58,252 nt of DNA from Eledone cirrhosa (Eukaryota), in NCBI GenBank assembly GCA_964016885.1, contig CAXHJY010001416.1:1-58252 (forward strand), given 5' to 3'. The notes under the pieces were generated by a model. It did not search any database. It was not told the origin of the DNA and saw only the letters and a program-made list of their open reading frames with translations. The position numbers were made by a program, and so were the translations under genes. Below are positions 32,746 through 52,426 of the stretch, one piece after another (positions within the stretch are counted from its first letter, which is position 1; the number at the start of each line of letters is the position of its first letter).

Positions 32746-33630
32746 CATACATATAAACGCACACTCACACACACGCAAACACATGCTCACATATACACAT
32801 ACAAACATACACACACACACATACAATCTCACGCTCATACACACACATACAAACATACACTCACACATGCAAACACACACTCTCACATGCAAACACACGA
32901 TCACACATGCAAACACACAAACACACACACTCACACATGCAAACTCACACATGCAAACTCACACATGCAAACACACGCTTACAAAAACGCACACAAAAAC
33001 GCAAACGTTCACACAAACATATGCAAACACATGCATACTCACACATACAAGCGCAAACACATACAAACACACACACATACTTACAAACATACACATAGAC
33101 ACACAAACGCATATATACACACAAACAGCACACAAACACAAACATACACACATATATACACAAACACACACACATACAAACACAAACACATTTATACGAC
33201 AAACACATACGTACAAACGCAAACGCATTACATATACACACATACATACACACACAAACACATACACATATATATACACAAACACACATACAAACACACA
33301 AACATACACATACGCAGGTCGTAAAATAATTACATATGACCACTTTGTAGTGATGTTTTATTGATAATCGAAAATTGCATTTTTTCCCTTTGAAGATCTT
33401 CACATTGGTCCCGAGGAATCGGTGGTTTAATACCTAAAAAGAATACATCTTTTTTCGCGTTAGCATCGGCCACGTCAATTACGTACAGCAAAACTTTGGT
33501 AAAAATAACGACAATAACAACACTAACAACAACAACAACAACAATAATATCCACCAATAGCGACATCAACAACAACATTACCTACAAATTTTTCCTTTAA
33601 TAAGGTGCAACAGCTGCCATAGAGAAAACT

Positions 33631-36203: not shown

Positions 36204-36263
36204 TAAGAAAAAATATGATCCCAACGGCTGAGCTTAAGCCGTTTCGACGGCTATTTCTGGACT
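36204..36263. mobile_element. Family F1 solo arm in (TA)n
   Basis: AAGAAAAAATATGATCCCAACGGCTGAGCTTAAGCCGTTTCGACGGCTATTTCTGGACT, with the same start and end points as the other arms. Confidence 0.85.
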
Positions 36264-43528: not shown

Positions 43529-43721
43529 TAGAAGTAGTTCCACAACAGTTAGTTCCCCATACCGACAACAAATGTTTCACCTTATGCGGATCTTCAGCTT
43601 GGCCTGAGTGAAGTTGTACGGAAAAGGAAAATCACCGCATGAATACGCATGCGCAAAAACGGTCACTTCTACAAGGCGATGTAATCCCGCAGTGGAACGT
43701 TGTAACTCTCCAGTGTTCTAC
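43529..43721 (+). mobile_element. Fold-back family F4; the inverted arm carries an HHR (43562-43602, minus strand)
   Basis: Minus strand reads CCAAG-CTGAAGA-TCCGCATAAGGT-GAAA-CATTTG-TT-GTCGG. The arm start TAGAAGT and tail end CAGTGTTCTAC are shared with 49458-49658. Confidence 0.75.
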
Positions 43722-43783
<62 letters not shown>

Positions 43784-45970: not shown

Positions 45971-46172
45971 TAGGAACGAGTAGGACCCCGACGGCTGAGC
46001 TCAAGCCGTTTCGACGGCTAATTCTGGACTTTTTAGTCCAGAATTAGCCGTCGAAACGGCTTGAGCTCAGCTGTCGGGGTCCTACTTGTTCCTATTACCC
46101 ACTCTACTACCCTAAGTATTGAGTACTTTGGTGCCTTATGGTCCATCTGGTTCCTTACCACATTTCCTTCGT

Positions 46173-46174
<2 letters not shown>
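45971..46174 (+). mobile_element. Fold-back family F1 (subfamily GGAACGAGTAGG)
   Basis: Arms meet at CTGGACT-TTTT-AGTCCAG. Full tail, in (TA)n. Confidence 0.9.
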
Positions 46175-46212
<38 letters not shown>

Positions 46213-46402
46213 AACATTTTTCCGCTTCCGACCTGTCCCTTTAATCTTTCTAATTTCTTTTCTTTTCTTCTGATGAAGGAGTAGCATCCGAAACATCCGG
46301 AGGAGCATCCGAAAGACCCTCTTCCTGCTATTTCAAGCGTTAAACTATTATATTCCTTCCATATACTGTACTGATTGTGTTGTTATTTCTGTTTACCTTT
46401 TA
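46213..46402 (+). mobile_element. Penelope-type pLTR relic with an HHR core at 46270-46294
   Basis: Pyrimidine-rich leader, then CTGATGA-A-GGA GTAGCA TCC-GAAAC. The 3' side is disrupted by a local duplication of GCATCCGAAA. Confidence 0.6.
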
Positions 46403-48236: not shown

Positions 48237-48430
48237 TAGGAAAAAGTATGACCCCAACGGCAGAGCTCAAGCCGTTTCGACGGCTATTTCTGGACTGAAA
48301 TAGCCGTCGAAACGGCTTGAGCTCTGCCGTTGGGGTCATACTTTTTCCTATTTCCCACTCTACTACCCTAAGTATTGAGTACTCTGGTGCGTTATGGTCC
48401 ACCTGGTTCCTTACCACAATTCCTTTGTTA
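48237..48430 (+). mobile_element. Fold-back family F1, best-preserved copy
   Basis: Perfect approximately 53-bp arms around the loop TGGACT. Tail ends CCTTTGTT|ATAT. Confidence 0.9.
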
Positions 48431-49342: not shown

Positions 49343-49749
<407 letters not shown>

Positions 49750-52148: not shown

Positions 52149-52426
52149 TTTAACATTTTTAATGGTATTAGAATGAAATAGTATGGTAGAATATTAAATG
52201 TTAAGTGTTAATTGAACAAGTACTTTCATGCTTTCGCAATATTCAGGTTCATATTGTGTGGTGACAGTCAAGTTTGCAATTTTCACAGTTGAAAATTGCA
52301 AACTTGACTGTCACCACACAATATGAACCTGAAGATTTCGAAAGCATGAAAGTACTTGTTCAATTAACACTTAACATTTAATATTCTACCATACTATTTC
52401 ATTCTAATACCTTTAAAAATTTTAAA
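52149..52426. mobile_element. Fold-back family F7: near-perfect inverted repeat (about 137-bp arms, 4-nt loop) with a minimal HHR-like motif
   Basis: Loop CAGT at 52286-52289. The right arm reads TGAAC-CTGAAGA-TTTC-GAAA-GCATGAAAGTAC-TT-GTTCA (52324-52362). Confidence 0.85.

Follow-up and report, generated by a model that had tools for sequence, protein, structure and literature searches.

Head-to-head stubs of a Penelope-like element in Eledone cirrhosa and a probable transcription start within its hammerhead ribozyme

We analysed a family of short inverted insertions, F1, in the genome of Eledone cirrhosa and consider it fairly probable that they are head-to-head stubs of a Penelope-like element (PLE) of the Hydra clade, in which two cDNAs would have been primed near the 5' end of an RNA and have run off that end. 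The window is one 58-kb contig (58,252 nt) of the 3.0-Gb assembly in which the genome-wide counts were made. A first-pass annotation of the window had described eight half-hammerhead insertions, explained as palindromic mini-elements generated by hairpin-stalled reverse transcription or fold-back priming. Its observation was confirmed in part, and its interpretation was supported in part.

Copies in the window and their parent element

Element positions are counted from 0, the last base of the short 3' end (…TTCCTA), with +80 as the end of the tail and negative numbers toward 5'. All eight annotated copies were found at the coordinates below and carry GAAA, stem III, GUC, and GGGG; their identification as the 3' half of a type I hammerhead holds. 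Each is flanked by (TA)n or (GA)n.

48237..48296, minus strand: short (untailed) arm of the 48-kb copy, element -59 to 0, its 3' end abutting (TA)n
A at 48296, minus strand: putative transcription start of this short arm, equal to its 5' end
48297..48350, plus strand: long arm of the same copy, element -53 to 0, with the hammerhead 3' half
48351..48430, plus strand: the PLE 80-nt tail, +1 to +80, here ending in (TA)n
6738..6898, plus strand: head-to-head copy in which a short arm to about -48 meets a tailed arm from about -38 at a common ACGGC
11497..11691, minus strand: head-to-head copy, tailed arm to -53 and short arm from -59
17058..17319, minus strand: head-to-head copy containing some 60 nt of AT-rich filler; an extra G precedes the start of the short arm at 17260
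28186..28370, minus strand: short-ended arm reaching about -177, 94% to the natural copy L204 over 188 nt
28429..28572, minus strand: head-to-head copy of a divergent subfamily, a tail-only long arm and a short arm from about -49
36204..36263, minus strand: lone short arm flanked by (TA)n tracts and ending at -59
45971..46174, plus strand: head-to-head copy, short arm to -59 and tailed arm from about -62

The arm at 48297..48350 contains the stem II 3' strand, GAAA, stem III with its palindromic loop, the UC cut site, and the stem I G-run, and the 80-nt tail is the beginning of the next unit in tandem arrays. The junction of the 11497..11691 copy is identical to that of the 48-kb copy. Arms had been said always to begin where TATA joins (G/A)GAA; this applies to the short arms (TA joined to GGAA), and the tailed arms begin instead at the end of the 80-nt tail. 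Two variants thought to be private to single copies are not: the one at 48 kb is a CpG transition that other copies have on a single arm, and the one at 11.6 kb is a subfamily letter. The proposal that both arms derive from one source is borne out by a mean of 1.1 differences arm-versus-arm and 4.2 copy-versus-copy (16 pairs, common 48 nt).

The window holds further insertions of this kind. A second family with similar anatomy, likely another PLE family, lies at 49457-49659 as two head-to-head arms, one of them tailed, flanked by (GA)n and (TA)n; it has a CUGAGGA...GAAA core and its junction at the 5' edge of that core, and a single related arm lies at 43530-43731. A third palindromic insertion (52200-52380) has a minimal CUGAAGA...UGAA hammerhead-like core that resembles listed Hydra motifs, and related sequence is carried by the flank of locus L046. 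A hammerhead-like motif with a canonical core (CUGAUGA...GAAAC) occupies 46270-46310, 100 nt from the 45971 copy. A 12-nt tandem unit at 18012-19629 (140 copies) is unrelated to F1.

The 14-mer that anchors the arm has 63,548 exact matches genome-wide, compared with 1 for a reversed control, and two arms lie head to head no more than 30 nt apart at 11,360 places. Longer copies have upstream sequence in common, and one 3.9-kb inverted insertion carries reverse transcriptase (RT) and GIY-YIG frames. A protein search returned many open frames of 784 codons (103 of 61,024 candidates scored) with YRDD and VIYQC...AYIGL, that is, an RT with a C-terminal GIY-YIG; the protein has 229 homologues at E ≤ 0.001. 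In five regions, units of 3.53–3.54 kb lie head to tail in arrays of 3–5 units, with the outer ends in (TA)n. Ten open frames are 95–99% identical to one unit, which indicates that the family is young. There are two fixed 3' ends, 80 nt apart and each joined to (TA)n; the tail end is joined to TATA at 33,333 exact junctions genome-wide.

The parent protein has RWR, DKT, YRDD, a CxCx5C linker (CNCPDRSIC), CNLC, and CKH, lacks CCHH, and has one C only between the halves of its GIY-YIG (alignment of 11 of 121 proteins). Comparison by eye gave long stretches common to it and to the printed Hydra proteins. The parent belongs almost certainly to the Hydra clade, judging from these sequence features. 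That clade likewise has a C-terminal GIY-YIG, RW(K/R), DKT, CxCx5C, CxxC, and CxH without CCHH, together with (TA)n targets and a hammerhead near the 3' end, and its Penelope-13_HM also has an inverted truncated copy attached (PMC8557442). The F1 parent unit, at 3.53 kb, is longer than the "generally <3 kb" given for the clade (PMC8557442). Tandem and partial-tandem units, an inverted truncated copy, and a one-sided tail are all present, as in EN+ PLEs. An autonomous Hydra-clade PLE thus takes the place of the self-propagating palindromic mini-element first proposed as the source.

Assignment to the Neptune or Nematis clade was rejected, as the linker is CxCx5C rather than CX2-5CxxC and CCHH is absent. 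Identity with Hydra-1_Obim was rejected because the ribozyme and N-terminus differ; the different ribozyme, together with 0 matches of the anchor motif in the PMC8557442 supplement, indicates another family. A SECIS element in the antisense hairpin, considered by eye, was also rejected, since the open frame is without an in-frame stop and the hairpin is on the wrong strand. Pfam gave no family at threshold for the parent protein, and a PDB sequence search gave no useful match. In the 5' region of one unit (L130), 67 open codons lie upstream of the methionine with which relatives align, and out-of-frame ATGs occur at +44 and +172. At another locus (L128+L129; G000:C1, ~91,489,170-91,490,000) a 55-nt segment of the element is repeated head to tail at least 15 times at the 5' end of the array, a pattern suggestive of repeated backward jumps by the RT.

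The 190-nt palindrome might instead spread as a unit, as a non-autonomous element of the MITE or retrozyme type. The 11,360 short palindromes agree with this, as does the recurrence of one junction (at 48 kb, at 11.6 kb, and in many of L002-L030, which were chosen for likeness). Junctions take many forms among the 50 listed, however, and the recurrent one is found in two different subfamilies, so that it has originated repeatedly. Each main subfamily inspected includes long arms that extend into the upstream half. The stubs are not tandem and are missing one half of the ribozyme, and we regard this explanation as highly improbable.

The hammerhead ribozyme of long copies

The sole window copy with a complete hammerhead is the arm at 28186..28370, the parts of which are as follows.

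28284..28290, minus strand: hammerhead 5' core, U3-U4-G5-A6-N7-A8-A9, reading TTGAGAA
28291-28294, minus strand: stem I C-run preceding the 5' core
28267..28276, minus strand: TATA-like stretch opening loop II, some 29 nt 5' of the putative start, a candidate promoter part
28242..28251, minus strand: initiator-like stretch within loop II, the putative start being the A at 28245 (-59)
28204..28205, minus strand: predicted hammerhead cut, between -19 and -18

The TATA-like letters at 28267..28276 are weaker in the subfamily of this copy. The 5' half of the hammerhead had been reported from no copy; this arm holds all of it, both the C-run and TTGAGAA at 28284-28290. The 12-bp "stem II" described earlier is the palindrome created by the inversion, and in the true stem II the arm pairs with a strand some 40 nt upstream. 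The 5' half lies about 55 nt upstream as UUGANAA, a U3:A8 variant of the core that is known from PLEs (PMC4209133). The predicted core CUGANGA proved to be incorrect: it has 36 matches within 30 nt upstream genome-wide, and those inspected (30/36) are junction accidents or flanks of other elements. The predicted C-rich stem I strand was found in longer copies, a C-run with YUGANRA 44–58 nt upstream being present in 5,883 arms (9.3% of the 14-mer count).

Among full copies (83 of 85 contexts parsed, in which overlapping loci may repeat a copy), the core columns are U4 in 83/83, G5 in 81/83, A6 in 82/83, A8 in 83/83, and A9 in 82/83; position 3 has 73 U, 9 C, and 1 G, and all four letters occur at position 7. 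This invariance is weak evidence because the subfamilies are close relatives. The long copies have the type I hammerhead features (core positions 3–9, GAAA, three stems, NUH, and a 3:8 pair) and the stubs do not; the canonical C3:G8 core is absent, A8 being present in 83/83 full copies. Loop II is 35–45 nt, stem III 5–6 bp, and loop III a 9-nt palindrome.

When folded without constraints, a young natural copy is predicted to adopt a type I hammerhead at -27.7 kcal/mol. The costs of the hammerhead fold relative to the free ensemble in seven natural copies were 0.5, 1.6, 1.6, 2.4, 3.1, 5.3, and 8.7 kcal/mol, so that three of the seven fold 3.1–8.7 kcal/mol better in other structures. Furthermore, the C3:A8 mismatch constitutes an entire subfamily (9/83 full copies). 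These results suggest that catalysis may be relaxed in part of the family. The subfamily with C3 opposite A8 (L117, L149, L150, L200, L201) still spread and offers a natural control for the role of cleavage. The 14-mer around GAAA (window 48299-48315) can form its own hairpin in competition with stems II and III, and this hairpin is the predicted fold of RNA starting at -59 in most copies folded. For one long copy from an older subfamily, Rfam gave no hammerhead; for the window, there was none among 150 of 441 matches listed, with microRNA-like noise below gathering scores.

Arm ends, the putative start site, and the predicted cut

We scored arm ends at the first 75 of the 33,333 tail-end anchors in chromosome order, a sample from one chromosome end that favours young copies and in which one double-tailed insertion was counted twice. 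The tailed arms ended within the tail in 13/75, at 0 to -16 in 5/62, at -17 to -19 in 5/57, at -20 to -49 in 12/52, and at -50 to -63 in 33/40, and of the remaining 7 arms beyond this wall none (0/7) ended at -64 to -287. The hot spot is therefore real, and junctions are non-uniform as had been claimed. After removal of 7 insertions that were too long and 18 without an adjacent inverted partner, 50 were left; the partner ended at the short site (untailed) in 45/50, and 36 of these 45 short arms ended at -52 to -63. In an independent DNA run, summed contig depth fell approximately 12-fold across -66, depth not being a copy number. The annotated arm stops at 17195, 17260, 36263, and 46030 were upheld, and the one at 28245 was not, as the 28186 arm continues to about 28370. 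The ends are spread over 14 nt and not confined to a single base: those at -53 are as common as those at -59 (26 vs 18 of 209 arms, with 60 loci chosen by upstream letters excluded), and no array 5' end lies at -59 (0/9).

The wall coincides with TTAGTC/TCAGTC, of which the A is at -59, and this sequence lies 29–31 nt below TATTTAAA/TATTTAT. We take TTAGTC/TCAGTC to fit the initiator consensus and TATTTAAA/TATTTAT to fit the TATA consensus. With A fixed one place further up, the letter before -59 was G in 880 and A in 375 cases, compared with 193 and 168 at a control start (-56), which gives an odds ratio of 2.0 for the excess of G (p 7e-9). Among the first 100 of 2,956 matches listed, 83 have G before -59; by hand count, this G could be common to the neighbour in 51 and could not in 32. 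The extra G was found on both arms in 463 two-strand matches, or about 230 junctions. A second initiator-like A (-63) showed no excess of G (23 G vs 77 T among 100 matches listed, hand count). Relative to the control the excess amounts to no more than a factor of two, and AG slippage could account for some of it.

An extra G at complete 5' ends of LINE-1 marks a copied cap (PMC11702581). Both the extra G at -59 and the empty interval from -64 to -287 are explained by an RNA 5' end, and we judge it likely that a promoter inside hammerhead loop II directs capped transcription from -59. An RNA run (contigs only, word share 0.10) gave one matching piece, which lies away from the ribozyme. Searches of open-access papers gave no report of a PLE start site inside a hammerhead loop or of footprints of cap G or ribozyme cut in PLE insertions.

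A second peak lies at the predicted ribozyme cut. In the subfamilies matched by the search pattern, the starts of tailed arms with the same two-letter prefix numbered 10 at -21, 6 at -20, 49 at -18, and 16 at -17; with the prefix AA, they numbered 15 at -19 vs 35 at -18. Position -18 is the first base 3' of the predicted cut. Among the first 100 of 439 matches listed, 73 are true junctions and the other 27 are intact or internally deleted arms. In approximately 32 of these 73 (hand count), the partner of a tailed arm ending at -18 also ends at -17/-18; partners ending there account for 1/45 in the unbiased sample. Such paired ends would follow if a single cut RNA served as the template for both arms. 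Of 54 cut-site junctions inspected among 482 two-strand matches (hand count), both arms stop at -18 in 22, separated by nothing but A or T; another 19 lack a spacer and would be explained just as well by a 2-nt CG overlap, and 13 have other forms. The ends at -18 are, on balance, probably the footprint of hammerhead self-cleavage, as read from genomic junctions.

Both peaks might instead arise where the RT stalls, at the stem II/loop II hairpin and the three-way junction, without any RNA end. The wall lies on the 3' strand of the predicted distal hairpin in loop II, the smear of ends is consistent with stalling, and the -18 peak comes after the stem I G-run. Stalling does not, however, predict an untemplated G that is specific to -59 or present on both arms. 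It also leaves the interval of 224 nt beyond the wall unexplained, in which no arm ends although the 5' strands of the same stems lie there, and the paired -18 ends within one insertion point to a common RNA end. We consider hairpin stalling, which had been the first proposal, unlikely. A further explanation is that long inverted insertions collapsed after insertion, long palindromes being unstable. Long inverted insertions do occur, and small overlaps at junctions are common, but collapse would yield neither the added G nor the constant ends at -59 and -18; moreover, lone arms without a partner stop at the same wall against (TA)n (the 36204 copy and others). There is accordingly very little probability that collapse formed the stubs.

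Formation of the paired arms and comparison with known elements

Each insertion has one tailed and one untailed arm. The untailed arm reached further 5' in 21/45 pairs and the tailed arm in 16, with 8 ties, which does not support the idea that the short arm always reaches further, as it would if one RT chased another. This independence of the two extents excludes a simple fold-back. Fold-back had been proposed for a single cDNA, and antisense-template self-priming has been proposed for rotifer PLEs (PMC3846280), so that a cDNA or antisense template might fold back and prime the second arm. The closer resemblance of arms to each other than to other copies would fit, and the anchor 14-mer is itself a small hairpin. 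Neither arm is always a copy of the other, however; only one is tailed, and some tailed arms have a partial tail and a partner reaching -56 to -60. Self-priming of this kind is very unlikely.

On the preferred reading of run-off from RNA 5' ends, an RNA from the loop II promoter would begin with its cap at -59, have the 3' half of the ribozyme only, and keep its cap, since a start inside loop II leaves it unable to form the ribozyme. Read-through RNA from tandem units would contain a whole ribozyme, and its cutting at -19/-18 would give a second RNA 5' end. The element protein would nick and prime both target strands, likely on one RNA molecule, by pairing of UAU/ATA with the target, UAU following both priming sites. 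From priming sites 59 and 139 nt from the putative start, two short run-off cDNAs would form the F1 stub, their ends being joined by end-joining with 0–7 nt of microhomology or filler; the observed junctions mostly have a 0–7 nt overlap or filler. Priming at a downstream unit on uncut read-through RNA would give long or tandem arms with scattered ends. Two cDNAs from the same stretch of RNA would call for strand displacement or for two RNAs of the same source held together, and we lean slightly toward both arms having been copied from one RNA. As a tentative proposal, the loop II promoter may act as a built-in switch, and tens of thousands of genomic stubs may record both RNA ends to the single base, along with cutting in vivo and dual priming on one RNA.

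Hydra hammerheads (26 rows, file S2) have C3:G8 and a loop II of 3–10 nt, whereas F1 has U3:A8 and 35–45 nt (PMC8557442); the clade is defined by its protein, and canonical ribozymes are an observation (PMC8557442). F1 resembles Schistosoma Cercyon in its U3:A8 pair, long stem II, G10.1-C11.1, palindromic loop III, and motif pairs on opposite strands (PMC4209133). The Cercyon hammerheads are minimal and without a stable stem III, however, whereas stem III of F1 has 5–6 bp and its loop II contains the putative promoter (PMC4209133).

A biochemical parallel lies in another clade, with Poseidon PAc of the green anole (PMC11167929), whose protein was shown in vitro to prime at two sites and to extend both strands. 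As in F1, two internal RT starts define the tail, both target strands are extended, the targets are AT-rich, and a dimer is predicted (PMC11167929). The start codon of Poseidon PAc lies within the overlap with its ribozyme, and RNA-seq yielded no cleaved ends (PMC11167929). F1 differs in that UAU follows both priming sites and in that genomic ends pile up at the predicted cut. The Penelope elements of D. virilis (PMC2377424) and Adineta vaga (PMC3846280) are similar in having a promoter within the pseudo-LTR, partial tandems, inverted terminal repeats, and a one-sided tail. The promoter of the D. virilis element is TATA-less, and an intron overlaps the ribozyme 5' end (PMC2377424). The available text of neither PMC2377424 nor PMC3846280 links an inverted-arm end to a start site or a copied cap.

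LINE-1 twin priming resembles F1 in that two primed ends are end-joined and complete 5' ends carry an extra G; the LINE-1 cDNAs copy adjacent parts of the RNA, whereas those of F1 overlap and start at two fixed sites (PMC11702581). The non-LTR retrozymes are also short, hammerhead-related, and PLE-derived, but they are tandem units with a whole ribozyme each, and F1 forms inverted pairs with half a ribozyme (bioRxiv 10.64898/2026.07.22.740005).

The element class, the tail, the inverted pLTR, and the U3:A8 core were already known separately. F1 would add a new family in a known clade, an unusual overlap of ribozyme and promoter, and a genomic record of RNA ends, as far as its sequences suggest. 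Searches by core motif miss ribozymes with a U3:A8 core and a 40-nt loop II, and F1 stubs are liable to be taken for MITEs or microRNA hairpins. The origin of the tandem and inverted structures of PLEs and the role of the hammerhead are named as open questions in PMC8557442. If our reading is true, F1 would provide a genomic record, exact to the base, of where transcription starts, where the ribozyme cuts, and where the two cDNAs are primed, so that every step could be tested directly, and it would account for the formation of the inverted repeats and one-sided tails of PLEs.
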